64,000 nt of DNA from Pelagibacteraceae bacterium AG-404-P07 (GCA_003216235.1 QCJE01000003.1:5542-69541); one strand, 5' to 3'. Shown: positions 30,206 through 44,484, numbered from the stretch's first letter. Program-made: numbers and translations. The notes: a model not told the origin generated them from the sequence alone.

Positions 30206-30955
30206 ATGCCCAGTAAAAAAAACATAAAAATAAAAAATAAAAAGAAAAAAGATAAAAATAGCGGAGGGCTAGCTAAACTTGCTAGTATCACTACAAAGTC
30301 TTTAAGTAGTGCTTATTTGAATTACAAAAAAAACCAAGAATTAAAAAAAATAAAAGAAATTAAGTTAAAAAAACTTCAAGAAAATAACGCAATAATAAAA
30401 GAAAAAAAAGATTTAAAAGTTTGGGAAGAAAAATTAAAAAAAGAAGAAAATAAATTAAGAATAAAAGAAGATGAGCTCAAAACAAAAGAAAAAGAACTAA
30501 GATCAAAAGAAGAAATTCAAAAAATTGAAAATGAAAGATTGATCAAGAAAGATGAAAATCTAGTTTTAATTACTAATGATTTAAGAAATAAGGAAAAAGA
30601 ACTTAAGCAAAAAGAAGAGGAGCAAAATAGGAAAAATATTGATCTTAAAGTTCGAGAAGAAGAACAATTGGCAAAAGAATTAAAAGAAAAAAAACGAAAA
30701 GAAAAAGTTCTTAAATTAATCAAGATAGAGGAAGAAAAACAGAAGGAATTAGAATTTGTTAAAATAAAAGAATGGGAAGAAAAATTTGATCGTGAAAAAA
30801 AAATTAAGCAACAAAGAGAAAATCTAAGAGAACAAAGATTAAGAGAGAAAGAACTAGAAAGATTAAAATCTTTTGAAGAAAATAGCAAACCTATTGAAAA
30901 TAAAATATCTTCTGGTTTAGAAAAATTTGAAGTTGATAAAACCCCAAAAAACTAA
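30206..30955 (+). CDS. Lys/Glu-rich coiled-coil or single-alpha-helix protein of unknown function
   Basis: Long open frame dominated by K/E/R/L with KEKEL repeats. ATG at 30206 is preferred over TTG at 30182. Confidence 0.7.
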   Translation: MPSKKNIKIKNKKKKDKNSGGLAKLASITTKSLSSAYLNYKKNQELKKIKEIKLKKLQENNAIIKEKKDLKVWEEKLKKEENKLRIKEDELKTKEKELRSKEEIQKIENERLIKKDENLVLITNDLRNKEKELKQKEEEQNRKNIDLKVREEEQLAKELKEKKRKEKVLKLIKIEEEKQKELEFVKIKEWEEKFDREKKIKQQRENLREQRLREKELERLKSFEENSKPIENKISSGLEKFEVDKTPKN

Positions 30956-31398
30956 TTTAAAATCTTAATTTCATCTCCAACATTTATTTTTGATGAGGAT
31001 AAAATCTGACATCTTAGACCTCCTCTTCTCAAAAATTCTTTAAGAATATTTTTTTGACTCAATATTTCTGTTAAATGTCTACATGGCCTACACAAATCTA
31101 TACCTTCTGCTTCAACTTTACCTATTAAAAGTTTTTTTCCAACTAAGTCATTAAGATTTATGCCTTTGGTAACAATATTTCTCCGAAAATCTAGGTATCT
31201 TATATTAAGACCATATTTTAAATTATAATAATCTATATTTTCTGATTCTATTAAGGATAACTGGCAATATGGATCATTAAACTCTTTAAAATGTCTATCG
31301 CCAATTACGCCTTTGTTAGCTAAAACTTTAATAGAACTTACTTCTTCTATTTCTTTATTGTTACTACGTGTGATACCGATCTTTATAATTTTTGACAT
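30952..31398 (-). CDS. MOSC-domain protein
   Basis: Motifs G..GDR, RRNIVTKG, CRPC and RGGLRC.I...I.VGD. Confidence 0.88.
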   Translation of the reverse strand: MSKIIKIGITRSNNKEIEEVSSIKVLANKGVIGDRHFKEFNDPYCQLSLIESENIDYYNLKYGLNIRYLDFRRNIVTKGINLNDLVGKKLLIGKVEAEGIDLCRPCRHLTEILSQKNILKEFLRRGGLRCQILSSSKINVGDEIKILN

Positions 31399-31439: not shown

Positions 31440-31667
31440 ATGAATAAAGAAAATGCAAGCAAACTTTGGAAGATTATTCAAAAAGCTGGTGATCATCTTC
31501 AAGGACAACTACCAGATCATCCAAATCACCCTAAAGGACGAAATCCTTATGCACACGTAGCACTATGTATAAAAGATAAATTCAAAAATAGTTATAAAGA
31601 TATATCTGATGAAAAATTTGATGAGGTTGTAAATTTTATAGAATTTTTAAAACAACATCCAAGTTAG
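31440..31667 (+). CDS. Small conserved-looking hypothetical protein (75 aa)
   Basis: Clean ORF that fills the gap. It has a low-Lys motif LPDHPNHPKGRNPYAHVA and a C-terminal F..SYKDI....FDEV..FI segment. Confidence 0.7.
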   Translation: MNKENASKLWKIIQKAGDHLQGQLPDHPNHPKGRNPYAHVALCIKDKFKNSYKDISDEKFDEVVNFIEFLKQHPS

Positions 31668-32785
31668 TCTAATTGTTTTGGAAAATAATCTTTTAAATCA
31701 CCTTCTCTATAAACATCAGCAGTACAACAGTGAAGTCCTCCACCAAATGCATACGCATCTCTTAATTCAATAGGGATAACTTCCATGCCTAATTTATCAA
31801 GTTGTTCAGCTTGATACTTTTCACTTTTCTCGACACAAACTGTTTTAGGATCTAAAACCAAAACATTCATCGAAAGCCAAACTGAAGAATAACAAAGAGG
31901 TGGCGGTTCGTTGTGTGCTGGCTGTGCTGCATCAATTATCTCCCAACCATTATTCTCAAATAGTTTTCTCTGTTCTTTAGGTAATCTTCTTTGAGGATTG
32001 TTTATAATCAAACCTTCTCTAATTGGTGTAAATGTAGCATCAATATGTATTGGATAGGGATCTCCTGGAAAATTTACTGCATGGACTCTATGATCTTTAT
32101 AATGTCTTTTTAACCAATCAATACCTTTAAGATTTGTTGTAAATCCGTGTTGAACAATCAAATCTTTTCCAAATCTTAATACATCTGCAGCATCAAATAA
32201 TGGTTCTTCCTCTGTGGTTACAAAAAATTTATCTTCTGTCCATTTAAGCCGTTTTTGAATTCCAATTTTGTCTGATAAATAATCTTTTCTATAATCAGCA
32301 TCTGTAAGTCTTGGTTTTGGCGCTGACTCATGTCTCATGTTAGTATCATTATTGTAGTATTCTTTTAAAAGTGGCCTATAGCATAAATATTCAAACCATC
32401 TACATCTATAACTCATTGTGGCCTCTAAAATTTCATTTCCTACTGTAAGCAAAACATCCCTCGGGGGCATACATCCAAACATAGTTTCCGCCTCCCAATC
32501 AGGAGTTGATGTTTTTTGATTAAAATTAATTGGCTCAGGTCTGTCCACTTTAATACCCCTCTTCTCCAAAATATTTGTAAAATCATCTAAAAGCTGGTTA
32601 GCTTTATCAACTGTATCTTTTGTTCTTGGGCCAAATTTCCCCCTCATATCCGAATCTTCTGGAACCTTAGCGTCAAGGGCAGGTTCTGGTGCAGGTATAC
32701 AGGTTCCATCTGCTCTACCAACTATTACATGTTTTAGTGGGTCCCACTCATTCCAACTATTTACTACAAATTTATTTTTATTCAT
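31664..32785 (-). CDS. L-arginine:glycine amidinotransferase-like enzyme
   Basis: VNSWNEWDPLKHVIVG, MPPRD, FDAAD (catalytic Asp), HIDAT (catalytic His) and GGGLHCCT (catalytic Cys). Start placed at ATG 32785, 1 nt after the creatinase stop. Confidence 0.88.
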   Translation of the reverse strand: MNKNKFVVNSWNEWDPLKHVIVGRADGTCIPAPEPALDAKVPEDSDMRGKFGPRTKDTVDKANQLLDDFTNILEKRGIKVDRPEPINFNQKTSTPDWEAETMFGCMPPRDVLLTVGNEILEATMSYRCRWFEYLCYRPLLKEYYNNDTNMRHESAPKPRLTDADYRKDYLSDKIGIQKRLKWTEDKFFVTTEEEPLFDAADVLRFGKDLIVQHGFTTNLKGIDWLKRHYKDHRVHAVNFPGDPYPIHIDATFTPIREGLIINNPQRRLPKEQRKLFENNGWEIIDAAQPAHNEPPPLCYSSVWLSMNVLVLDPKTVCVEKSEKYQAEQLDKLGMEVIPIELRDAYAFGGGLHCCTADVYREGDLKDYFPKQLD

Positions 32786-32786
32786 C

Positions 32787-34004
32787 CTATCTTTTGATAA
32801 TATTATGTTCTGGGCCAAATGGAAACTTAGTAATATTTTCAGCCCCATCTTTACCGATAATTAAAATATCGTGTTCTCTATAACCACCCGAGCCTGGCTT
32901 TCCTTCAGGAATTAAAATCATAGGTTCCATTGAAATAACCATATTTTCTTCTAAGATCGTATCAATATCCTCTCTAAGTTCCAATCCTGCTTCCCGTCCA
33001 TAAAAATGGGAAAGGACTCCAAAGGAATGTCCATATCCAAAAGTTCTGTATTGTAAATACCCAAGATCTGCAAATAATTCATTTAATTCATTACAAATAT
33101 CTGAACATTTAACACCTGGCTTTATTAATTCTAGACCTCTTTTATGAACTTTTACATTTGCTTCCCAAGCTCTCATTGAGTCATCGTCAACTGATTCTAA
33201 AAATAATGTTCTTTCAAGTGCTGTGTAATAACCTGAAATCATTGGGAATGTATTCAAAGATAAAATATCACCATTTTTTAATTTGCGGTTAGTTTTTGGA
33301 TTATGTGCACCATCTGTATTAATTCCAGATTGAAACCATACCCAAGTATCCATGTATTCAGCACTAGGATAGGTAGTTGCAATTTCTCTCTCCATTTTAT
33401 CTCTTCCAGAAATTGCAATTTCTAGTTCAGTTGCACCTTGTTTAATATTTTTAACTATTTCTTCTGCACCTATATCAGCAATTCTTGCACCATTCTTGAT
33501 TATTTGTATTTCCTCATTTGATTTTATCATTCTTAATTTCATAAGCTCTTTTGAGATATCTTTAAAAACTGAAAATGAAAATATCGAACCAATTTTTTCT
33601 CTCATATCTAATGTAATATGATCATTTTCGATACCAATATTTTTTGGTGGATCGTCTCTACCAATAATCGAGACAATAGCTTTTAAAAAATTATCTCTTT
33701 TCCAATCTGTATAAATAACATTATCACAATGTGATCTTCTCCAAGGTTGACTTGAGTCTATATTGGCTGAAATAGTTGAAATCTTATTTTTTGTAATTAC
33801 GCAACCATAAGGTCTGCCAAAGGAACAATAAATAAAACCTGTGTAATATGCTATGTTGTGCATTGATGTTAAAATAATCATATCAAGGTTATTTTTTTCT
33901 AATACTTTTCTTAATTTATTTACTCTTTGATTATATTCTTGATCAGTGAAAGGAAGTTTTGCCTTTTCTCCATTATTTAATGTAAAAAAATCAGGTCTTT
34001 CCAT
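32787..34004 (-). CDS. Creatinase (creatine amidinohydrolase, M24 fold)
   Basis: Creatinase-specific motifs YCSFGRPYG, QPWRRS, WFQSGINTDGAHNP, YTALERT, GYGHSFGVLSHFYGREAGLELRED, SMEPM and GGYREHDIL. Confidence 0.9.
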   Translation of the reverse strand: MERPDFFTLNNGEKAKLPFTDQEYNQRVNKLRKVLEKNNLDMIILTSMHNIAYYTGFIYCSFGRPYGCVITKNKISTISANIDSSQPWRRSHCDNVIYTDWKRDNFLKAIVSIIGRDDPPKNIGIENDHITLDMREKIGSIFSFSVFKDISKELMKLRMIKSNEEIQIIKNGARIADIGAEEIVKNIKQGATELEIAISGRDKMEREIATTYPSAEYMDTWVWFQSGINTDGAHNPKTNRKLKNGDILSLNTFPMISGYYTALERTLFLESVDDDSMRAWEANVKVHKRGLELIKPGVKCSDICNELNELFADLGYLQYRTFGYGHSFGVLSHFYGREAGLELREDIDTILEENMVISMEPMILIPEGKPGSGGYREHDILIIGKDGAENITKFPFGPEHNIIKR

Positions 34005-34013
34005 AGATTTGTT

Positions 34014-34919
34014 TTAATTTAGAGCAATATATCTTTTATTCCATCTCATAATTAAACTATAATAAGTTATAGATACAAAAAGAAAAAAACCACCGACTAT
34101 AGTATTTGTTGATGGTACTTCATTGATGCCGAATAAAGGTAACCATACCCAAAAAATTCCCCCTATTACTTCAGTCAAAGATAGTAAAGTAAGTTCTGCT
34201 GCTGGAATTGCTTTTGATCCTATAGAATATAAAATTAACCCCAAACATACTAATGTACCATGCAACGAAAACATGGAGCTATTATAATTAGTTGCAAAAA
34301 AAGTTTGATTTTTGCTTAAAATCACAATTGTTGCTACAACAAAACAAAACAATCCCGCTATAGCTACAGTAGTAAATTTTGGAGTTTCTTTTCTCCATCT
34401 TAATGTTACAGAAAAAACAGAAAAACCGATAGACGAAGTAATGCCGAAAATAAATCCGATTACTGAACTTTTTTCAGTATTACCAAATGCCATTATTATT
34501 ATTCCTATAGTTGCAAGTATTATTGATATCCAAACATTAAAACTAATTCTTTCTTTTAAAAATAAAAAAGCAAGTAATGCTGTAAAAAAAGGCATAGCTG
34601 CTAAACATAATAAAGTAATTGCAGCTGTAGTGTTTGTAATTGAATAAATAAAAGAAATCATTGCTACACCAAGACCACATCCACCTAATAATCCTGATTT
34701 ACCAATTTTCTTATAATTTTTATAAAAATTTAAGCCTTCTTCAAAATATAAATAGAGATTTAAAAGAATAAATATCGTAAGGCCTCTACCAAATATATAT
34801 TGCCATGGTACAAGATTAGGTTGATCCATATACCTAACTACTAATGGACCAAATGACCAAAGTAGCCCAGCAAATAATACTACGGGTACTGCTATTTTTT
34901 CATTTTTAAGTTCGATCAT
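34014..34919 (-). CDS. DMT/EamA-family transporter
   Basis: About 10 TMs; AAELTLLSLTEVIGG.FWVW motif; 9 nt upstream of the creatinase gene. Confidence 0.87.
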   Translation of the reverse strand: MIELKNEKIAVPVVLFAGLLWSFGPLVVRYMDQPNLVPWQYIFGRGLTIFILLNLYLYFEEGLNFYKNYKKIGKSGLLGGCGLGVAMISFIYSITNTTAAITLLCLAAMPFFTALLAFLFLKERISFNVWISIILATIGIIIMAFGNTEKSSVIGFIFGITSSIGFSVFSVTLRWRKETPKFTTVAIAGLFCFVVATIVILSKNQTFFATNYNSSMFSLHGTLVCLGLILYSIGSKAIPAAELTLLSLTEVIGGIFWVWLPLFGINEVPSTNTIVGGFFLFVSITYYSLIMRWNKRYIALN

Positions 34920-34970: not shown

Positions 34971-36224
34971 TTATGAAAAAAATTTATTTGATTGATTTGG
35001 AAAAAAACAATCAACAATTTCCCCTTTTTTAAATTTTTCTTTACCAGAGGGTAGCATCACCCAAATATTTGATTGTATAAATGATTTTATTCTAAATGAC
35101 TCCTGGCCTTTTAAAATTTGAACTTCTAGTTTACCATTATTAGTTGTACTCAATTTACTTTTTACGAAACGTGTAAAGTCTTTTTTTTTTCTAAATTCAT
35201 TCTTTAATATTGCTTTAAATGAAATTTCCTCTTTTATACCAAGTAAATTTCTTAAATATGGGTATACAAAGAATCTAAAACATGCAGCTGATGAGATTGG
35301 GTTCCCTGGTAAACCAAAAATAGCTTTTGACTTCCCTCTTATCTTTGCAAACAAAATTGGCTTACCTGGTCTGATTGCTACACCTTTAAAATGATTAGAT
35401 AACCTAAATTTATTTACTACACTTGGCACAAAATCAAATTTTCCAGCTGATACAGCACCAGAAGTAATAATCATATCAATTTTCGATATAAGCATTTTGT
35501 TTATATATGATCTAAATAAATTACTTTGATTATCTCTTAAAATTCCACCATCTTTAAAGTTGAATAAAAAATTTTCATTCAAAGAATTAATATAATGACA
35601 ATTTGAGTTTCTTACTTCCCAATCTAGGATTTTATCTTTATTGGTAATTTCATTACCAGTTGAAAAAAATAAAATATTCGGTTTTTTTTTAACTTTAATC
35701 TTTTTTATTCCCAATGTCTTTAATGCTAATATATGATTAGGTTGCAAAATTGTTCCTTTAGATATTAATAAATCACCTTTTTTATAATCTGAACCCTTAA
35801 ACCTTACATGTTCAAACTTTGGTATTTTTTTATTTATTAAAATATAGTTAGGGTTTTTTTTATTTGGATGAAAATTTATTTGCTCAATTGGAATTATTGT
35901 ATCAAAAGATTTTGGTATTAATGCACCAGTCATTATCTCTACCGTTTGAAATTTTTTAATTTTTTTTTTAATTGGTTTATTTCCTGCAGCAATCGATCCG
36001 ATTATTTGGAATTTTTGATATAGCTTTTTATTTAATTTATTCGTATCGATTGATTTTAATGCATAACCATCAAAAGCAGCATTATTTCCTGAGGGATAGT
36101 ATGAATGAACATATATATTTTCTGAAGTAACTCTATTAAGACATTTGTTAGTTTTTATAAATTCTTCACCTATCTTAATTATAGATTTTTTTAAAATAAT
36201 TTTAGATTTTTTATAACTTATCAT
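34971..36224 (-). CDS. moeA: Molybdopterin molybdotransferase
   Basis: Motifs AAFDGYA, IMTGA..P, STGNE, TSGAVSAGKFD, RPGKP and GLPGNP. Confidence 0.94.
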   Translation of the reverse strand: MISYKKSKIILKKSIIKIGEEFIKTNKCLNRVTSENIYVHSYYPSGNNAAFDGYALKSIDTNKLNKKLYQKFQIIGSIAAGNKPIKKKIKKFQTVEIMTGALIPKSFDTIIPIEQINFHPNKKNPNYILINKKIPKFEHVRFKGSDYKKGDLLISKGTILQPNHILALKTLGIKKIKVKKKPNILFFSTGNEITNKDKILDWEVRNSNCHYINSLNENFLFNFKDGGILRDNQSNLFRSYINKMLISKIDMIITSGAVSAGKFDFVPSVVNKFRLSNHFKGVAIRPGKPILFAKIRGKSKAIFGLPGNPISSAACFRFFVYPYLRNLLGIKEEISFKAILKNEFRKKKDFTRFVKSKLSTTNNGKLEVQILKGQESFRIKSFIQSNIWVMLPSGKEKFKKGEIVDCFFPNQSNKFFS

Positions 36225-36828
36225 TCTTTAATAATTTTTTTGCATTTTCTAAATCTTCCTCGGTATTAATATTAAAAAAAGGATCTTTATTGTTTTCATA
36301 TTCTAAATCAATTGTTTTAACACCAATTTCATTTGCCCACAGTTCTACTTTTCTATCACCTTTGTCTAGCGCAAATTCTAACTTTTCAAATAGTTCTAGT
36401 GACCATAATCCAAAAATATTATGCCGTGTATTTTTTGACTTCATAAAAAATAGATTACTTTTATCTAAATTAATCTCTTTATAAAATTTTATTAGATGAT
36501 TTTTTTTAAAAAATGGAGTGTCAATTGGAAATGTTGATATCCATTTATAATCTTTTTTATTATCTCTTGCCCATTTCATTGCACTTAATACCCCTCCAAG
36601 AGGTCCCAGACCTTTTTTGATATCGCTTGTTACAGAAATGTTATTTGAGTCCAAAAATTTAATTGGCTCATTTGTCACAATCAAAATATCTTTATAAAGA
36701 TCTTTTATTTCATTCAAAATGTAATCAATCAGTATTTTATCAGCTAATTTAACTTGAGATTTATCTCTACCAAATCTTTTAGATTTTCCTCCTGCTAGCA
36801 CAACTGCTAAAATGTTGTTATGATCCAT
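36211..36828 (-). CDS. mobA: Molybdenum cofactor guanylyltransferase
   Basis: Motifs LAGGKSKRFG.DK, GPLGG, P.DTPF and FFNINT.ED. Confidence 0.92.
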   Translation of the reverse strand: MDHNNILAVVLAGGKSKRFGRDKSQVKLADKILIDYILNEIKDLYKDILIVTNEPIKFLDSNNISVTSDIKKGLGPLGGVLSAMKWARDNKKDYKWISTFPIDTPFFKKNHLIKFYKEINLDKSNLFFMKSKNTRHNIFGLWSLELFEKLEFALDKGDRKVELWANEIGVKTIDLEYENNKDPFFNINTEEDLENAKKLLKNDKL

Positions 36829-36871
36829 CAAACGAAATATAAAACATTAAATTTTGATTTAAAGAAATAAA

Positions 36872-37273
36872 ATGGATTTACGAATTTTAGAAATAGCCTC
36901 AAATACTGAGAACAATAAAATTCTTGAAAAACACACACATAAATCAAAAAATAAAAATCCAATTTGTGGCGATGAAATGGAAATTAGTCTTTTAGTGCAA
37001 AATGATAAGGTCATTGATATGGGTTACCAATGTAAATCATGTGTTTATTGCCAGGCTTCTGTGAGTTTACTATCACAAAAAATCAAAAATAAAAAATTAG
37101 ATGAAATCAAAAAATTTATAAATTCGTGTGAAAATATATTCGAAAATACTAAAATAATTTTAGAAAAAAATTGGGTAGACTTTATAGAATTATTGGACCA
37201 AAAAAATGCAACTAGAAAAGAATGTTTGCTTCTTCCAATGAGAACTGTATTTAAAGCATTAAAATTGCAATGA
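36872..37273 (+). CDS. IscU/SufU/NifU-N-like Fe-S scaffold or sulfur-transfer protein
   Basis: NPICGDE, C..C..CQAS and R.ECLLLP cysteine pattern. Confidence 0.82.
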   Translation: MDLRILEIASNTENNKILEKHTHKSKNKNPICGDEMEISLLVQNDKVIDMGYQCKSCVYCQASVSLLSQKIKNKKLDEIKKFINSCENIFENTKIILEKNWVDFIELLDQKNATRKECLLLPMRTVFKALKLQ

Positions 37274-37746
37274 TTAAAATAAATAAAGAAACTTTTAAAA
37301 AAGCTTTACTGGCAGGAATATTTTCTGCATTCACAATAGGTGTTCTTACTGTTTTAACCTATAAAAGTGCCTTAGGTTTATTTATAGCTGGGTCTTTTGG
37401 ATCATCTATGGTTTTATTATTCGGTTTTCCTGAAAGTCCATTTGCTCAACCAAAAAATGTTTTTTTTGGTCATTTAGTTACTGCACTTGTAGGTGTAGTT
37501 TTTGTAGCTCTAGTACCATTGCCAATATTCATCAACATAGCTTTAGCAGTTGGAGTTGGAATTTTTTTAATGATATTATTTAATGTCGTGCATCCTCCAG
37601 CGGGTGGAAATCCAATAATGGTAATTATTGGAAGTGTTTCTTATGATTATTTATTAAGTCCAATTATATTTGGATGTATTATCATTATTTCATTAGCTAT
37701 CTTAATTAATAAATTTTTACTTAAAAAGAATTATCCGTTAAAATGA
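37270..37746 (+). CDS. HPP-family small membrane protein
   Basis: SFGSS.VLLFG.PESPFAQP.N...GH and HPPAGG motifs; 4-5 TMs. Confidence 0.9.
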   Translation: MIKINKETFKKALLAGIFSAFTIGVLTVLTYKSALGLFIAGSFGSSMVLLFGFPESPFAQPKNVFFGHLVTALVGVVFVALVPLPIFINIALAVGVGIFLMILFNVVHPPAGGNPIMVIIGSVSYDYLLSPIIFGCIIIISLAILINKFLLKKNYPLK

Positions 37747-37750
37747 TTGG

Positions 37751-38590
37751 ATGAATTCTAATTATAAGGTAACCAAATTTAAAAAAAATAAATTTGAAAG
37801 AGTCGATGATCTCATTTCAATAGAAGAACCTTTAGAAATTTCGATAAAATATAAAGATCTAAATGAATGGGTAACTAGTAGCCTTTCAATAACAATGAGA
37901 ACCCCGGGTCATGATGAGGATTTAGTAAGGGGTTTTTTATTTAACGAACAAATAATTCAAAATTTAAATGAAATAGACAAAATAGAAAATATTGGTGAAA
38001 AGGTTGGGCGATATAAAATTCAAAACAAAATATTAATTACTCTTAATAATTCTAAAAATATAAATATTTCTAAAATTAAAAGAGACTTTTTAACAAATTC
38101 ATCGTGTGGAGTGTGTGGAAAATCATCGCTTGATGCTTTAGAGATAATTAAAAAAGAGAAAACTTTTAAGACTAAGCCAAGGTTAGCAAAAGGTGTTATT
38201 GTCAGATCGCCTTCAATATTAAGACAAAATCAAATTGAGTTTTCAAAAACTGGGGGAATTCACGCGAGTGGATTATTTTCATCAGATGGCAAATTGATAT
38301 CTCTTAGAGAGGATGTGGGAAGACATAATGCTCTAGATAAAATGATTGGAAATGCTTTAAATGAAAACCAAATTGACCCTAAAAACCAATTTATAACATG
38401 TTCTGGTCGATTAAATTTTGAGCTTGTTCAGAAAGTTTTAATGACAAATATTGGATTAATGATCGGTGTAGGTGCGCCAACTAGCCTAGCAATAGACCTG
38501 GCGAATAGGTTTGACATGACCTTGATAGGTTTCGTAAAAGAGGATAGTTTTAACATTTACACAAATAACCAAAAAGTTATTGTAAATTAA
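37751..38590 (+). CDS. fdhD: Formate dehydrogenase accessory sulfurtransferase
   Basis: Motifs EEPLEI, MRTPG, SSCGVCG, TGGIHAS, EDVGRHNALDK and APTSLA. Confidence 0.95.
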   Translation: MNSNYKVTKFKKNKFERVDDLISIEEPLEISIKYKDLNEWVTSSLSITMRTPGHDEDLVRGFLFNEQIIQNLNEIDKIENIGEKVGRYKIQNKILITLNNSKNINISKIKRDFLTNSSCGVCGKSSLDALEIIKKEKTFKTKPRLAKGVIVRSPSILRQNQIEFSKTGGIHASGLFSSDGKLISLREDVGRHNALDKMIGNALNENQIDPKNQFITCSGRLNFELVQKVLMTNIGLMIGVGAPTSLAIDLANRFDMTLIGFVKEDSFNIYTNNQKVIVN

Positions 38591-38606
38591 TATTGCGGGG
38601 AGACTA

Positions 38607-40262
38607 GTGTCAAAAAATATTAGTAATTTGTCAGGTAAAGTTGGATTAAAAGACAACCTTTTTAAAAAGATGTCTGAAAATATCCTTAATGACTCACCAA
38701 AAGATATTAAAGAAATTGCGAAAGAATATAATTTAGGTGTTTCAACTATTCATGGAGCAGAGAGCTTTTATGAATTTTTAAGACCTTCACATAGAGAAAA
38801 AAAAGCTTTTGTTTGTAATGGCAGCGCCTGCATGTGTGCTGGTACTCAAGACAAATTAAAAGAAACTTTAAAATCAAAACTTGGAGATGACAAAGTAGGT
38901 GAAATGTTTTGTTTGGGGCACTGTTACGAAAATCATGCTTTCCATTATGATGGTGAAAATTATGCAGGAAAAGATATTGAAAAAATTGATCAAATTTTAA
39001 AAGGAGAAAATATCAAACAAGAAAAATTTTTTTCAAAAAGTTATGCAACGACAAGTTTTTTAATGGATGATAAACTTTCTTCAACAGATCAATTCAAAGA
39101 TCAGCTGAATAAATTTTTAAAAGTAGATAAAAAAGAAATTGTTAAGTCACTACTAGACTCCAATCTAACAGGAAGAGGTGGTGCAGGCTTTCCAGCTGGA
39201 ATGAAATGGGATTTCTGTAGTAAAGCAAAAGGTGATAAGAAATATGTTATATGTAACGCTGATGAAGGAGACTCGGGCGCATTTTCTGACAGATACCTTT
39301 TGGAGGACCAGCCATTAAAAGTTATTTTTGGAATGGTAATATGCGGTTTGGTAATAGGAAGCGATGAAGGGGTATTATATATTAGAGGCGAATATCCAAA
39401 ATCTATAGAAGCAATTAATGGATGTATTAATGAACTTAAAAAATTAAACTTGTTGGGTGAAAATATTTTAGGTACTAAATTTTCTTTTGATCTTGGAATT
39501 TGCATTGGTCAAGGCGCTTATATTTGTGGTGAAGAAACAGCTTTGATAGCATCAATTGAAGGTAGGCGCGCTGAGGTAGATGTTAGACCTCCATTCCCAG
39601 TTACTGAGGGACTTTATAAAAAGCCAACTGTAGTTAACAATGTTGAAACTTTAGCAGCAGCAACGGGTATTTTAATTAATGGTGCTGAAAAATTCTCATC
39701 AATTGGAAACAAAAAATCTGCGGGAACAAAATTAGTTTGTCTAGATAGTTTTTTTAATAATCCAGGTGTTTATGAAATAGACATGGGAACACCAATGAAA
39801 AAAATATTTAATGAAATTGGTGGTGGTTACAAAGAACCCTTAAAAGCATTTCAAATTGGTGGTCCTCTAGGTGGTGTTGTTCCTCTTAATGAAATTGATA
39901 ATCTTAATTTAGACTTTCAGGAATTTACCTCAAAAGGTTTCATGCTGGGTCATGCCAGTGTTGTAAGTATTCCTAAAGATTTTCCAATGACTGAATACAT
40001 TCATCATTTATTTGAATTTTCTGCAGAAGAGTCTTGTGGCAAGTGTTTTCCAGGAAGGTTAGGGTCTTATAGGGGAAAAGAGATGTTTGACCAAGCTAAG
40101 AAAAAAACTGCAAAAATTCCTCTTAAATTACTTAATGAATTATTGGTAACAATGAAAAAGGGTTGTTTATGTGCTCTTTGTGGTGCAATACCAACTCCAA
40201 TAATGAATATTCTAAAATATTTTGGTGATGAAATGAAAGATGATATGGTAAAAGACAACTAA
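38607..40262 (+). CDS. NAD-dependent formate dehydrogenase flavoprotein subunit, NuoE-NuoF (FdsG-FdsB) fusion
   Basis: N-terminal [2Fe-2S] motif CNGSAC...CLGHC; GRGGAGFP, NADEGD, GAYICGEETAL and NNVET; C-terminal SCGKC. GTG start with a GGGGAG RBS. Confidence 0.9.
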   Translation: MSKNISNLSGKVGLKDNLFKKMSENILNDSPKDIKEIAKEYNLGVSTIHGAESFYEFLRPSHREKKAFVCNGSACMCAGTQDKLKETLKSKLGDDKVGEMFCLGHCYENHAFHYDGENYAGKDIEKIDQILKGENIKQEKFFSKSYATTSFLMDDKLSSTDQFKDQLNKFLKVDKKEIVKSLLDSNLTGRGGAGFPAGMKWDFCSKAKGDKKYVICNADEGDSGAFSDRYLLEDQPLKVIFGMVICGLVIGSDEGVLYIRGEYPKSIEAINGCINELKKLNLLGENILGTKFSFDLGICIGQGAYICGEETALIASIEGRRAEVDVRPPFPVTEGLYKKPTVVNNVETLAAATGILINGAEKFSSIGNKKSAGTKLVCLDSFFNNPGVYEIDMGTPMKKIFNEIGGGYKEPLKAFQIGGPLGGVVPLNEIDNLNLDFQEFTSKGFMLGHASVVSIPKDFPMTEYIHHLFEFSAEESCGKCFPGRLGSYRGKEMFDQAKKKTAKIPLKLLNELLVTMKKGCLCALCGAIPTPIMNILKYFGDEMKDDMVKDN

Positions 40263-43030
40263 TGAGTTCTGAAAAAAGAAAAATTGCTTATATTGATGGT
40301 AAACCATATGAGATTGGCGCCAATCATACATCTATCTTAAAATTTGTTAAAAGCTATGTTGGTGAAAAAAAAGTACCATCATTATGTGATGATCCTAATT
40401 TAGCACCCTACGGTGCCTGTAGAGTTTGTTCAGTTGAAGTAGCATTAGAAAAAGATGGACCAACAAAAGTAGTTGCTTCATGCCATACTCCAATAGCTGA
40501 AAATCAACACGTTTTCACAACAAATGACAATCTTCATAATCTTAGAAAAAACATAGTAGAATTGGTCTTAACTGACCATCCAATGGAATGTAATACTTGT
40601 GAGGTAAATAATAATTGTGAACTTCAAACTGTTGCAAACGACCTAGGTATTTCTGACCATAGATATAATAATCCAAAGCAACACAAAGGTATTCCAAGAG
40701 ATACTTCTCATGATTATATGAGAATGAACTTAGATAATTGTATAAATTGTGGAAGATGTGTAAGAGCTTGTGATGAAATTCAAGGATCATTTGTATTAAC
40801 AATGTCTGGAAGAGGTTTTGAGTCTAAAATTACAACAGATAACGATATGACATTTGGAGACTCTTCATGTGTTTCTTGTGGTGCTTGTGCACACACATGT
40901 CCAACTGATGCTATTTCTGATGTATTTCAGTCAAAGTCTGCTGCTGTAGATAAAAAAGTAAGAACTACCTGTTCATATTGTGGCGTAGGATGTAATCTTG
41001 AAACTTCAATTAAAAATAATAAAGTTGTTGCTATAGATACACCTAAAGAAACTGAGGTCAATGCCGGTCATACTTGTATCAAAGGAAGATATGCATTTGG
41101 TTTTTATGATCATCCTGACAGACTTAAAACTCCGTTAATTAAGAGAAATGGAAAATTTGAAGAAGCAACTTGGGATGAGGCTTATGATTTTATAAAAAAA
41201 GAAATGCAAAGGATCATAAAGGATCATGGACCTGATGCTTTTGCAGGTATTTCATCTGCTAGATGTACTAATGAAGAAAACTATGTTTTTCAAAAAATGA
41301 TTAGAGCTGCTGTTGGTACAAATAGTGTTGATTGTTGTGCAAGAATTTGTCACTCCCCTACCGCATGGGGAATGCAACAAACTTTCGGAACTGGTGCTGC
41401 AACTAATTCTACTGAAGATATCTATCATGCAGATTTATTTTTAATTATTGGAGCAAATCCAACAAATGCTCACCCAGTTACAGGTGCAAAAATAAAACAA
41501 CAAGTAATGAAAGGTAAAAAACTTATTGTTTTAGATCCTATTACAACAGAAGTTGCACAACTAGCAGACTATCATATTAAATTAAGACCCGGAACTAATG
41601 TTGCTGTTCTAAATATGATGTTACATTATATCGTTAAATCAAAATTATATAATGTTGATTTTATTAGAGATCGTACAGAAGGTTTCGATAATTTTTTAAA
41701 AGAAATTGAAAGACAAGATGTTGATCAATTGGCAAAAGTTGCTGGGGTAGATAAACAGCTAGTTAAAGAAGCTGCTATTGCATATGCAACTGCAAAAAAT
41801 TCAATGGAATTTCATGGGTTAGGAGTAACAGAGCACGAACAAGGGTCAAAAACAGTAATGTTGATTGCAGACCTAGCTATGATCACAGGTAATATTGGAA
41901 GAAAAGGAGTTGGTGTAAATCCTTTAAGAGGTCAAAACAATGTCCAAGGTGCTGCAGATATGGGTTGTCAACCTCATCAAGGTGCTGGCTATTTTGAAGT
42001 AGCTGATGAAAAAAATCAAAAATTCTATACAGAGAAATATGGTGTAACACATCCAACTAAAGCTGGCCTAAAAATACCACAAATGTTTGATGCGGCTATC
42101 AACAAAGAATTAAAAGGAATCTGGATTATTGGTGAGGATATTGTTCAAACAGATCCTAATAGTGCTCATGTGGTTGAAGCAATGAATTCATTAGAGTTAT
42201 TAGTTGTTCAAGAAATATTTATGAGTGAAACAGCAAAACTTGCAACAGTAGTTTTACCAGGAACTACCTTTTTAGAGAAAGATGGAACTTTCACTAATAC
42301 CGAAAGAAGAGTTCAAAGAGTTAATCGGGCTGTTCCTCCATTACCAGGAACAAAACCAGATGGCGTTATAGTAACAGATATGATGCAAAAACTTGGTTTT
42401 GATCAACCAGACTATGATGCAGATCAAGTATTAGCAGAAATTGCGGATATTGTTCCTTTCTTTAAGGGAATTACTCGAGAAAGATTAGGAAAAATGGGCT
42501 TACAATGGCCTGTAAAAGAAGATGGAACAGATACACAAATATTACATACTGAAGAATTCAAACTAGGAAAAGGTCGATTGAAAAACTTTGACTGGAAAGA
42601 ATCTTCTGAGATTGAAGCCAATCATAAAGATTATCCTCTAATATTGACGACAAGTAGAGTTTTACAACACTATAATGCTGCTACAATGACAAGAAGAACT
42701 AGCAATATTAACATTGTTGATGAAGATGTATTGTTAGTACATCCTAAAGATGCGGCAAATAGAGATTTAAATACTGGTGATATTGGAAGATTGTATTCAG
42801 GTAGAGGTGAAGTAGCTTTAAAAGTAGAGGTTACGGATAAAGTAAAAGAAGGTATAGTTTTTACAACATTCCATTTTCCTGAACATATGGTCAATATGGT
42901 AACTGGTCATGGAAAAGATGAAGAAACAATGTGTGCTGAATACAAAGTTTCTTCAGTACAAGTTCAAAAAATCTCAAATCAATTCAAAACTGAAGTAAAA
43001 CCAAAAGACCATGAGGCTGAAGTAAGCTAA
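40262..43030 (+). CDS. fdhF: Formate dehydrogenase alpha subunit (Mo/W-bisPGD, NuoG-like Fe-S N-terminus)
   Basis: CRVC, H...C..C.....C, CINCGRCVRAC, CVSCGACAHTCP, CSYCGVGC; active-site CARICHSP (Cys form); LRGQNNVQG. Confidence 0.93.
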   Translation: MSSEKRKIAYIDGKPYEIGANHTSILKFVKSYVGEKKVPSLCDDPNLAPYGACRVCSVEVALEKDGPTKVVASCHTPIAENQHVFTTNDNLHNLRKNIVELVLTDHPMECNTCEVNNNCELQTVANDLGISDHRYNNPKQHKGIPRDTSHDYMRMNLDNCINCGRCVRACDEIQGSFVLTMSGRGFESKITTDNDMTFGDSSCVSCGACAHTCPTDAISDVFQSKSAAVDKKVRTTCSYCGVGCNLETSIKNNKVVAIDTPKETEVNAGHTCIKGRYAFGFYDHPDRLKTPLIKRNGKFEEATWDEAYDFIKKEMQRIIKDHGPDAFAGISSARCTNEENYVFQKMIRAAVGTNSVDCCARICHSPTAWGMQQTFGTGAATNSTEDIYHADLFLIIGANPTNAHPVTGAKIKQQVMKGKKLIVLDPITTEVAQLADYHIKLRPGTNVAVLNMMLHYIVKSKLYNVDFIRDRTEGFDNFLKEIERQDVDQLAKVAGVDKQLVKEAAIAYATAKNSMEFHGLGVTEHEQGSKTVMLIADLAMITGNIGRKGVGVNPLRGQNNVQGAADMGCQPHQGAGYFEVADEKNQKFYTEKYGVTHPTKAGLKIPQMFDAAINKELKGIWIIGEDIVQTDPNSAHVVEAMNSLELLVVQEIFMSETAKLATVVLPGTTFLEKDGTFTNTERRVQRVNRAVPPLPGTKPDGVIVTDMMQKLGFDQPDYDADQVLAEIADIVPFFKGITRERLGKMGLQWPVKEDGTDTQILHTEEFKLGKGRLKNFDWKESSEIEANHKDYPLILTTSRVLQHYNAATMTRRTSNINIVDEDVLLVHPKDAANRDLNTGDIGRLYSGRGEVALKVEVTDKVKEGIVFTTFHFPEHMVNMVTGHGKDEETMCAEYKVSSVQVQKISNQFKTEVKPKDHEAEVS

Positions 43031-43035
43031 ATTAA

Positions 43036-44484
43036 ATGACCATAGGATGGTGTTTTGATAATACTTATTTCAAATTATCAAAAGCTTTTAAAGAAGATAT
43101 AAAGCCTATTCCAGTTAAAAAACCTGAACTAGTCTTATTTAATAAAAAACTTGCAGAGGATCTTAATCTTGATTTTTCTAATTTGGATAATCAAAAATTA
43201 TCAGAATTATTTTCAGGAAACTCTTTACCAGAAGGTAGTAATAGTCTTGCCCAAGCTTATGCTGGACATCAATTTGGTCATTTCACTATGTTAGGTGATG
43301 GTAGAGCTGTTTTGATTGGGGAACATTTATCAAAAGATAATAAAAGATATGATATTCAATTTAAGGGGTCAGGAAAAACTGCATTTTCAAGAAATGGTGA
43401 TGGTAGGGCTGCATTAGGTCCAATGTTAAGAGAATATATAATTAGTGAAGCTATGAATGGACTAAGAATTCCAACAACAAGAAGTTTAGCAGTTGTAAAA
43501 ACAGGTGAAGATGTAATTAGAGAAGCTTTTTTACCTGGTGCAATTTTAACAAGGATTGCTTCAAGTCATATAAGGGTTGGAACTTTTCAATATATTGCTG
43601 CTAGAGAAAAAAAAGATGAACTAGAAGTTTTGTTAAACTATGTGATTAATCGTCATTATCCAGATATAAAAAATTCTAAAAATAAAGCTATAGATCTTCT
43701 AGCTAATGTTATGGAAAAACAAATAGATCTAGTTGTCAATTGGATGAGAGTTGGTTTTGTTCATGGTGTAATGAATACTGATAATATGAGTATTTCTGGT
43801 GAAACAATAGATTATGGACCTTGTGCATTTATGGATACGTATGATCCAAAAACAGTATTTAGTTCTATAGATCAAATGGGTAGATATGCTTATTGCAATC
43901 AACCTGTAATCACAAAATGGAATTTATCAAGATTTGCTGAATGCTTAATACCTTTTATTGATAATGATCAAGAGAAAGCAATTGAATTAGCGACAAAAAT
44001 CATAAATTCATTTGAAAAAAAGTATGAAGAAAAATGGCTTAATATGATGAGAGATAAGTTAGGTTTATTTGGTGTAGATGAAAAAGATAAATTTTTAATT
44101 CTTGATCTACTTACTTGGATGCATCAAAAGAAAGTTGATTATACAAATACTTTTTGTCATTTAATGAATGAGAATATAGATGATGATAAAAATTACGAAG
44201 ATAAAGATTTTCAAAATTGGAAAATAAGATGGGATGAAAGATTAAAAACTAATAATAATACATCAGAAAAATATTTAGAATTAATGAAAACTGTTAACCC
44301 TTTAATTATACCAAGAAATCATAAAGTTGAAGAGGCTCTTGAAGAAGCTAAAAAAAATAATTTAAAACCCATTAATCAACTAATAAAAGTTTTGAAAGGT
44401 CCATATTCTCATCAAAAAGATATTCTTGATTATCAAATTGGATCTAATTCAGATAAAAAATACCAAACCTTTTGTGGAACTTAA
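43036..44484 (+). CDS. selO: Protein adenylyltransferase SelO (YdiU family)
   Basis: Motifs AYAGHQFG, LGDGRA, KGSGKT, DGRA, GFVHGVMNTDN, TIDYGP and C-terminal TFCGT. Confidence 0.93.
   Translation: MTIGWCFDNTYFKLSKAFKEDIKPIPVKKPELVLFNKKLAEDLNLDFSNLDNQKLSELFSGNSLPEGSNSLAQAYAGHQFGHFTMLGDGRAVLIGEHLSKDNKRYDIQFKGSGKTAFSRNGDGRAALGPMLREYIISEAMNGLRIPTTRSLAVVKTGEDVIREAFLPGAILTRIASSHIRVGTFQYIAAREKKDELEVLLNYVINRHYPDIKNSKNKAIDLLANVMEKQIDLVVNWMRVGFVHGVMNTDNMSISGETIDYGPCAFMDTYDPKTVFSSIDQMGRYAYCNQPVITKWNLSRFAECLIPFIDNDQEKAIELATKIINSFEKKYEEKWLNMMRDKLGLFGVDEKDKFLILDLLTWMHQKKVDYTNTFCHLMNENIDDDKNYEDKDFQNWKIRWDERLKTNNNTSEKYLELMKTVNPLIIPRNHKVEEALEEAKKNNLKPINQLIKVLKGPYSHQKDILDYQIGSNSDKKYQTFCGT

Follow-up and report, generated by a model that had tools for sequence, protein, structure and literature searches.

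The 64,000-nucleotide stretch of DNA analysed here (GCA_003216235.1 QCJE01000003.1:5542-69541; hereafter the window) comes from Pelagibacteraceae bacterium AG-404-P07, a member of Pelagibacter (SAR11 Ia) with a 0.94-Mb, 79% complete genome, and is rich in A and T with a GC content of about 28%. It carries a block of three genes encoding an EamA/DMT-family transporter (DMT), a creatinase, and an amidinotransferase (AT) of the arginine:glycine amidinotransferase (AGAT) family. Comparison across the order revealed that the fixed core of this block is the DMT-AT pair, and that the creatinase is an optional module slotted between the two. We tentatively read the block as an operon of modular build that would take up guanidino acids and other glycine derivatives of that kind and salvage them for the glycine and arginine pools, a reading that we place just short of an even bet.

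The core was defined in a survey of 201 Pelagibacterales genomes, including 116 from Pelagibacter and 60 from a second SAR11 family, which are close relatives so that the counts overstate independence. AT was present in 114 of the 116 Pelagibacter genomes and in 50 of the 60 second-family genomes; six other genera of the order gave no match. The count for DMT in Pelagibacter is likewise 114/116, with both genes missing from the same two genomes. At all 70 Pelagibacter loci with enough flanking sequence, DMT is located directly upstream of AT if the creatinase is set aside. The creatinase itself was found in 71/116 Pelagibacter genomes and in a single genome of the second family (1/60). Wherever the coordinates of both genes are listed for a Pelagibacter genome, the creatinase immediately precedes AT, and at 42 of the 70 loci it sits between DMT and AT with gaps of 1–12 nt, a recurrence of gene order indicating that the arrangement in the window did not arise by chance. 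The isolate HIMB1483 is among the carriers of the creatinase form. DMT and AT are directly adjacent in the creatinase-free genomes, and this natural DMT-AT form was also seen in RNA: within the contigs of one marine metatranscriptome run, which cover a small share of the stretch, one contig joins position 32785 to position 34014 and omits exactly the creatinase. The first-pass annotation of the window had treated the creatinase and AT as one functional unit. The creatinase is indeed nearly always found beside AT, but AT often occurs without the creatinase, being near-universal in Pelagibacter and common in the second family where the creatinase is missing. A lack of co-conservation, named earlier as a refuting outcome, thus holds in one direction, and the unit had to be redrawn around DMT and AT.

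A second module is encoded 2–6 nt 3' of AT at 28 of the 70 loci, ahead of a 75-aa open reading frame (ORF) that marks the operon boundary. This module is an aldolase of the threonine/phenylserine type (PF01212, 200 bits; E = 1e-106 to both 1v72 and 7yvr). It is absent at the window, and in five whole genomes no copy of it was found elsewhere in the genome. The creatinase and the threonine aldolase are independent plug-ins that have been repeatedly gained or lost: all four combinations of their presence and absence occur among the 70 loci, and the minimum number of state changes on the AT gene tree is at least 6 for the creatinase and at least 10 for the aldolase.

Two loci show the company that DMT keeps where AT is missing. 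At the canonical site of genome G148 (L142:4868-7107), AT has been deleted and DMT is followed by the threonine aldolase and then by the 75-aa ORF, with an AT copy located elsewhere in the genome. In G156, which belongs to another genus and has no AT, a DMT orthologue (57%) is the last gene of an operon (L143:143-6206) that encodes, in order, a dehydrogenase of the dimethylglycine/sarcosine dehydrogenase type (DMGDH/SarDH), ETF-beta, ETF-alpha, and ETF-QO. As a partner of DMT, the SarDH/DMGDH enzyme leads from sarcosine or dimethylglycine to glycine. Because of the DMT-aldolase locus and the DMGDH/SarDH-ETF-ETFQO operon, we consider that the transporter travels with glycine-yielding catabolic enzymes. 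A LysE-type translocator gene converges on the DMT orthologue of G156. A DMT homologue (44%) in the second SAR11 family was rejected as part of the same system, being surrounded by unrelated genes.

The gene identities given in the first-pass annotation were upheld by Pfam matches and by alignments to PDB entries. Residues 4–404 of the creatinase align with the Pseudomonas putida enzyme 1chm at an E value of 2.4e-158 (7yto, 1.2e-157; 1kp0, 2.6e-146), whereas the next family, the prolidases, reaches only 1e-26. The protein has the 'pita-bread' architecture of Creatinase_N (PF01321) and Peptidase_M24 (PF00557), and all five active-site motifs singled out earlier (SFGR, GAHN, ALER, YGRE, and MEP) are aligned to the same positions of 1CHM and are identical to it. 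The residues that matter in the P. putida enzyme are presumably the catalytic His in GAHN, the Arg in SFGR and YGRE, and the Glu in ALER and MEP. On this basis the window protein is firmly identified by sequence as a genuine creatinase (EC 3.5.3.3), and it is predicted to hydrolyse creatine to sarcosine and urea. The resemblance to P. putida creatinase (EC 3.5.3.3; 1CHM) and to the classical creatinine/creatine-sarcosine pathway thus comprises a full-length match, identical active-site motifs, and the sarcosine oxidase genes of SAR11 genomes. The SAR11 system differs in that no creatininase accompanies the gene, urease was not found in most carriers, and the creatinase is an optional cassette in a transporter-amidinotransferase operon. 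Creatinase in SAR11 subgroup Ia had already been noted (PMC3686209).

The closest PDB relative of AT is human AGAT (1jdw; E = 5e-87, ~45% identity), followed by SxtG (5e-67), HsvA (2e-60), and StrB1 (2e-51); the Pfam assignment is a weak match to the ADI superfamily. The motifs FDAAD, HIDAT, and GGGLHC, reported earlier, are all present and aligned to the same positions of 1JDW. The catalytic triad C353, H247, and D198 corresponds to Cys407, His303, and Asp254 of human AGAT, and D110, D249, R266, and S301 correspond to the Arg/Orn-binding residues D170, D305, R322, and S355, the equivalents of which are conserved throughout the marine alphaproteobacterial clade of AT. We take R322 and S355 of human AGAT to be binders of the α-carboxylate. 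The 300-flap reads DPYPI in AT and DPNPM in human AGAT, so that Tyr and Ile stand in place of Asn300 and Met302. These two residues act in substrate binding and lid movement in the human enzyme (PMC4887976). The flap is hypervariable across the amidinotransferase family and is invariant as DPYPIH throughout the marine alphaproteobacterial clade. The flap of CyrA is DIFPS and that of AmtA is DMHPM (PMC4887976). Since CyrA is a proven Arg:Gly enzyme and yet has a flap unlike that of human AGAT (PMC4887976), the DPYPI flap leaves glycine and guanidinoacetate as candidate substrates of AT. The AGAT reaction is reversible, with guanidinoacetate serving as donor (PMC4887976).

Compared with vertebrate AGAT/GATM (EC 2.1.4.1; 1JDW/1JDX), AT aligns over its full length with identical triad and Arg/Orn-binding residues, but lacks the N-terminal extension that occupies residues 1 to ~60 of human AGAT (423 aa). 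It is also encoded together with a transporter and a creatine-degrading enzyme, with no GAMT partner seen in the contexts examined, and its proposed physiological direction is reversed. The amidinotransferases of secondary metabolism (CyrA, SxtG 6U1R, AmtA, StrB1 1BWD, and HsvA 5WPI) have the same fold and catalytic machinery but are more distant, scoring 230–179 bits versus 296 for AGAT. No genes for nonribosomal peptide synthetases (NRPS), polyketide synthases (PKS), aminocyclitols, or toxins were found among the window neighbours of AT scanned with Pfam or named in the first-pass annotation, at the SAR11 variant loci, or in five non-SAR11 contexts. Homologues of AT with 73–80% identity occur across alphaproteobacterial orders, those in Rhodobacterales, Rhizobiales, and others with 76–80% identity carrying the DPYPIH flap, and in the five contexts outside SAR11 the gene is a lone orphan, sometimes near transposases or restriction-modification genes. 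NCBI calls close homologues (P0009, P0033, P0102, P0120, and others) 'serine/threonine protein kinase', and JGI calls them glycine amidinotransferase. The kinase name on these proteins from Rhodobacterales, Rhizobiales, and other metagenome-assembled genomes is an evident annotation error that should be corrected.

DMT matches Pfam EamA (PF00892, 63 bits) as a polytopic membrane protein of ~300 residues. Its score against TIGR00950 was 60.8 bits, below the cut-off of 230, and no specific equivalog was reached. A protein search for relatives of DMT beyond SAR11 was dominated by SAR11 proteins that are almost identical to it. We propose from its family and partners that it is a candidate importer of guanidino-acid or N-substituted glycine compounds.

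In the reading we favour, the DMT permease would bring in small derivatives of glycine, guanidinoacetate and creatine among them, and AT would work in the AGAT reverse direction, transferring the amidino group to ornithine from guanidinoacetate or a closely similar compound and thereby yielding arginine and free glycine. In strains like that of the window, the creatinase would split creatine into sarcosine and urea, and the resident sarcosine oxidases would convert the sarcosine into glycine and a one-carbon unit; in other strains, the appended threonine aldolase would produce glycine from threonine. The net outcome would be a supply of glycine (and arginine) in a glycine-requiring oligotroph. 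We infer the direction of transport, the direction of the AT reaction, and the amidino donor from the gene context: import and salvage are favoured because every enzyme travelling with DMT yields glycine or an immediate precursor of it. The reading also draws on a divergent AT copy that lies within an island for glycine-betaine import and demethylation. No biosynthetic partner (NRPS, PKS, or GAMT-like) was seen in any gene context examined, and the lone AT outside SAR11 would be explained as a one-enzyme entry into arginine metabolism. Reverse salvage had been one of two options in the first-pass annotation; it is still the best reading, but it is now centred on DMT and AT, with the creatinase only an add-on.

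The gene inventory of five genomes, four of them 99% complete, and a urease count over the 116 Pelagibacter genomes bear on the fate of the products. The five genomes have argF, argG, and argH and one to two copies of SoxD, a marker of multi-subunit sarcosine oxidase operons, indicating that sarcosine and ornithine can be handled. Ornithine cyclodeaminase was not found in them, nor was a canonical arginase, as their two ureohydrolase paralogues are of the agmatinase type and both score below the arginase cut-off. Of the genes recommended earlier for checking, argFGH are thus present and a canonical arginase was not found. Urease alpha was detected in 14 of the 116 genomes, 13 of them creatinase-positive, and urease was not found in 58 of the 71 creatinase-positive genomes, so that creatine is probably valued for its sarcosine and glycine over its urea nitrogen. 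In eight genomes where both are on the same contig (G091, G157, G150, G077, and others), urease lies ~43–54 kb from the DMT-creatinase-AT locus.

Several points weigh against uptake and salvage of guanidino acids. The assignment is drawn from sequence and context, and agreement among closely related genomes does not count as independent evidence. Many characterised EamA-family proteins are exporters, and no transporter gene is linked to AT in the second SAR11 family or in Alphaproteobacteria outside SAR11. The DPYPI flap is unlike both DPNPM of human AGAT and DIFPS of CyrA, and the specificity of AT for glycine and guanidinoacetate is therefore not assured. A literature search found no report of dissolved guanidinoacetate in seawater, and the proposed main substrate may thus be scarce. 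Finally, arginine biosynthesis is complete, so that salvage would not be essential.

In one rival, the substrates of AT are creatine and sarcosine (creatine + ornithine <-> sarcosine + arginine): creatine would be taken up by DMT in all strains, AT would salvage its amidino group, and the creatinase would serve as a hydrolytic overflow; run in reverse, the same AT would make creatine from sarcosine. Creatine, unlike guanidinoacetate, is reported as a marine metabolite (PMC12324868, PMC11366302), and North Pacific communities made 13C3,15N1-creatine from glycine-betaine-derived sarcosine via 'an unidentified enzyme' (PMC9321204). It is rather improbable, in our estimate, that the SAR11 AT with its DPYPIH flap is this enzyme, interconverting creatine and ornithine with sarcosine and arginine. 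The 1-nt coupling of the creatinase and AT genes suggests a common substrate, and the clade-specific invariant flap could reflect a non-glycine acceptor, although the flap says little in that it differs between human AGAT and CyrA, which use the same substrates (PMC4887976). A divergent AT copy (74% identity) in G148 also adjoins a DMGDH/SarDH-type enzyme. This copy is located inside a glycine-betaine import and demethylation island (L043:400-12800) with the order OpuAC ABC transporter, BHMT-like protein, DMGDH/SoxA-like protein of 801 aa, AT, METTL27-like methyltransferase, GbcA-like Rieske oxygenase, SET-domain protein, and DddP-like M24 hydrolase. We rejected the methyltransferase beside it as a GAMT, as it is METTL27-like and has no GAMT match in the PDB. 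Under the creatine/sarcosine reaction the creatinase would be partly redundant, and we know of no characterised amidinotransferase with an N-methylated acceptor or donor. We therefore regard this rival as unlikely. The known SAR11 route from glycine betaine through sarcosine to glycine, together with the glycine auxotrophy of these bacteria, resembles the operon we propose in its end product, glycine made from glycine derivatives, and the DMT orthologue and the divergent AT copy lie inside clusters of that kind. The two differ in their entry compounds: the proposed operon would take in guanidino acids, and in some strains threonine, and these have not been described as SAR11 substrates.

A second rival keeps AT in the forward direction, from arginine and glycine (or another amine) to ornithine and guanidinoacetate (or another guanidino compound), which DMT would export or which would have a cellular role. 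For animals and CyrA this direction is the canonical one, the many exporters among EamA proteins are in line with it, the glycine for AT could come from the threonine aldolase, and the 73–80% identity across alphaproteobacterial orders suggests an important product. However, an oligotroph that requires glycine and is poor in nitrogen would lose glycine and three nitrogen atoms through the reaction, and a biosynthetic operon is hardly the place for a creatine-degrading enzyme. The DMT orthologue in a catabolic SarDH/DMGDH-ETF operon and the lack of any downstream GAMT-like, NRPS, or PKS gene in the contexts examined also argue against it, and we consider forward synthesis doubtful.

We give similarly little credence to the view that AT acts on a pair unrelated to glycine (polyamines, taurine/taurocyamine, beta-alanine, GABA, or lysine) and that the creatinase and the aldolase are present merely as the site tolerates insertions. 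The acceptors of the family do vary, lysine being used by AmtA and polyamines by HsvA, the flap is hypervariable among family members, the sequence immediately past the operon differs greatly between loci, and AT is an orphan gene elsewhere. Yet the creatinase is placed within the operon at gaps of 1–12 nt, the aldolase precedes the boundary ORF and so lies outside the variable region, R322 and S355 (presumably the α-carboxylate binders) are conserved, and three independent partner enzymes converge on glycine or sarcosine.

The other option in the first-pass annotation was an arginase substitute, in which arginine and a glycine carrier (or, as we extend it, sarcosine) would give ornithine and a guanidino acid that the creatinase splits into the carrier and urea. 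In its favour, the search for a canonical arginase was negative, with both Pelagibacter ureohydrolase paralogues scoring as agmatinase-type, and the genes for the creatinase and AT are coupled in translation. It is nonetheless very improbable and fails as the core role: AT occurs without the creatinase at 28 of the 70 Pelagibacter loci (40%) and in almost every genome of the second family, the urea would go to waste in the 58 of 71 creatinase carriers without a urease match, ornithine cyclodeaminase was not found in the five genomes, creatinases are known to be creatine-specific, and the transporter would be left without a role. As a side effect in creatinase-positive strains, this bypass is kept alive by the lack of a canonical arginase.

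No bacterial lineage in the sea is more abundant than SAR11, whose ecology is shaped by its need for glycine, and the transporter-amidinotransferase pair, with its interchangeable creatinase and threonine-aldolase modules, is present in nearly every Pelagibacter genome. If salvage holds, guanidino acids such as guanidinoacetate and creatine would be a new class of SAR11 substrates, with an added route to arginine that saves nitrogen and ATP; it might also explain the unexplained creatine isotopologue in field tracer work. If instead AT uses the creatine/sarcosine pair, creatine would give arginine and glycine without loss of nitrogen as urea, and such a one-step creatine synthase/salvage reaction would be new to biochemistry. 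Our literature search found no paper linking an amidinotransferase to SAR11 or Pelagibacter, and the main text of a nitrogen-limitation study of HTCC1062 mentions neither locus gene. Creatinase in SAR11 is known; for AT, the DMT-AT core, and the modular architecture, no prior description was found in the searchable literature.

The features of the locus are listed in Table 1. Minus-strand ORFs and the junction sequences bore out the close spacing described for the three genes, with 9 nt between DMT and the creatinase and 1 nt between the creatinase and AT, where the TAG stop codon is followed by a single G and then by the ATG of AT. The longest ORF of AT starts at 32848, but we placed the start at 32785 because alignments with orthologues begin at the first residue of the 373-aa product.

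Table 1. Features of the DMT-creatinase-AT block and its surroundings (positions in the window)
Feature	Position	Strand	Remarks
EamA/DMT-family transporter	34919..34014	minus	301 aa; first gene of block
Creatinase	34004..32787	minus	405 aa; between DMT and AT
AGAT-family amidinotransferase (AT), marine alphaproteobacterial 'DPYPIH' clade	32785..31664	minus	373 aa
75-aa ORF	31440..31667	plus	converges on AT and overlaps its stop; marks 3' operon boundary
MobA and formate dehydrogenase (FDH) operon	neighbours of block		listed again below with positions; named from ORF position and first-pass annotation
Small MOSC-domain protein	30952-31398	minus	downstream of operon
MobA-MoeA genes	34971-36831	minus	directly upstream of DMT, 51-nt gap
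fdhD/formate dehydrogenase block	36872-44484	plus	adjoins MobA-MoeA genes

The conserved 75-aa ORF matched no Pfam family. It was detectable by tblastn at 56 of the 70 loci, always just 3' of AT or of the threonine aldolase, and the region past it is highly variable among loci; its function is probably outside the pathway. The Pfam scan of the neighbours between 28.1 and 36.2 kb identified MFS, cmk, MOSC, and MoeA genes. As had been stated earlier, there was no GAMT, creatininase, NRPS, or PKS among these proteins, nor any methyltransferase, and none of the four was present among the genes at 36.9–44.5 kb, going by the names in the first-pass annotation alone. Rfam gave no riboswitch at the locus, its sole match being a glycine riboswitch at gcvT, 20 kb off. 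A riboswitch or regulator at the locus was rejected, as promoter and terminator scans were not better than shuffles.

The MOSC protein downstream of the operon is rare at that position, occurring at one other locus with enough flank, and a link between MOSC and AT was rejected on this count of one locus plus the window. A different, 257-aa MOSC protein adjoins a divergent AT copy in L034. The MobA-MoeA genes and the fdhD/formate dehydrogenase block were present at 32 of 39 creatinase-positive loci versus 2 of 31 creatinase-negative loci. A link of the creatinase to this molybdenum-cofactor/FDH block was not accepted, as the independent contrasts were too few for a verdict, with only three of five in agreement (none opposite, two without change; p = 0.25). 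Oxidation of the creatine methyl group is a possible connection between the two.

Other genes were occasionally seen with AT. In Ca. P. ubique HIMB4 (L090:9167-10537), AT is followed, in place of the aldolase, by a class-III aminotransferase of 456 aa, a family that includes ornithine, GABA, and putrescine aminotransferases. Two Pelagibacter genomes have second AT copies (75% identity; L034:2200-11600 and L042) in an island with the order TauD-like dioxygenase, HD protein, GMC oxidoreductase, AT, a different EamA transporter, plant-type 2OG-Fe(II) oxygenase, luciferase-like monooxygenase, and AA_synth, which may represent another guanidino-compound pathway.

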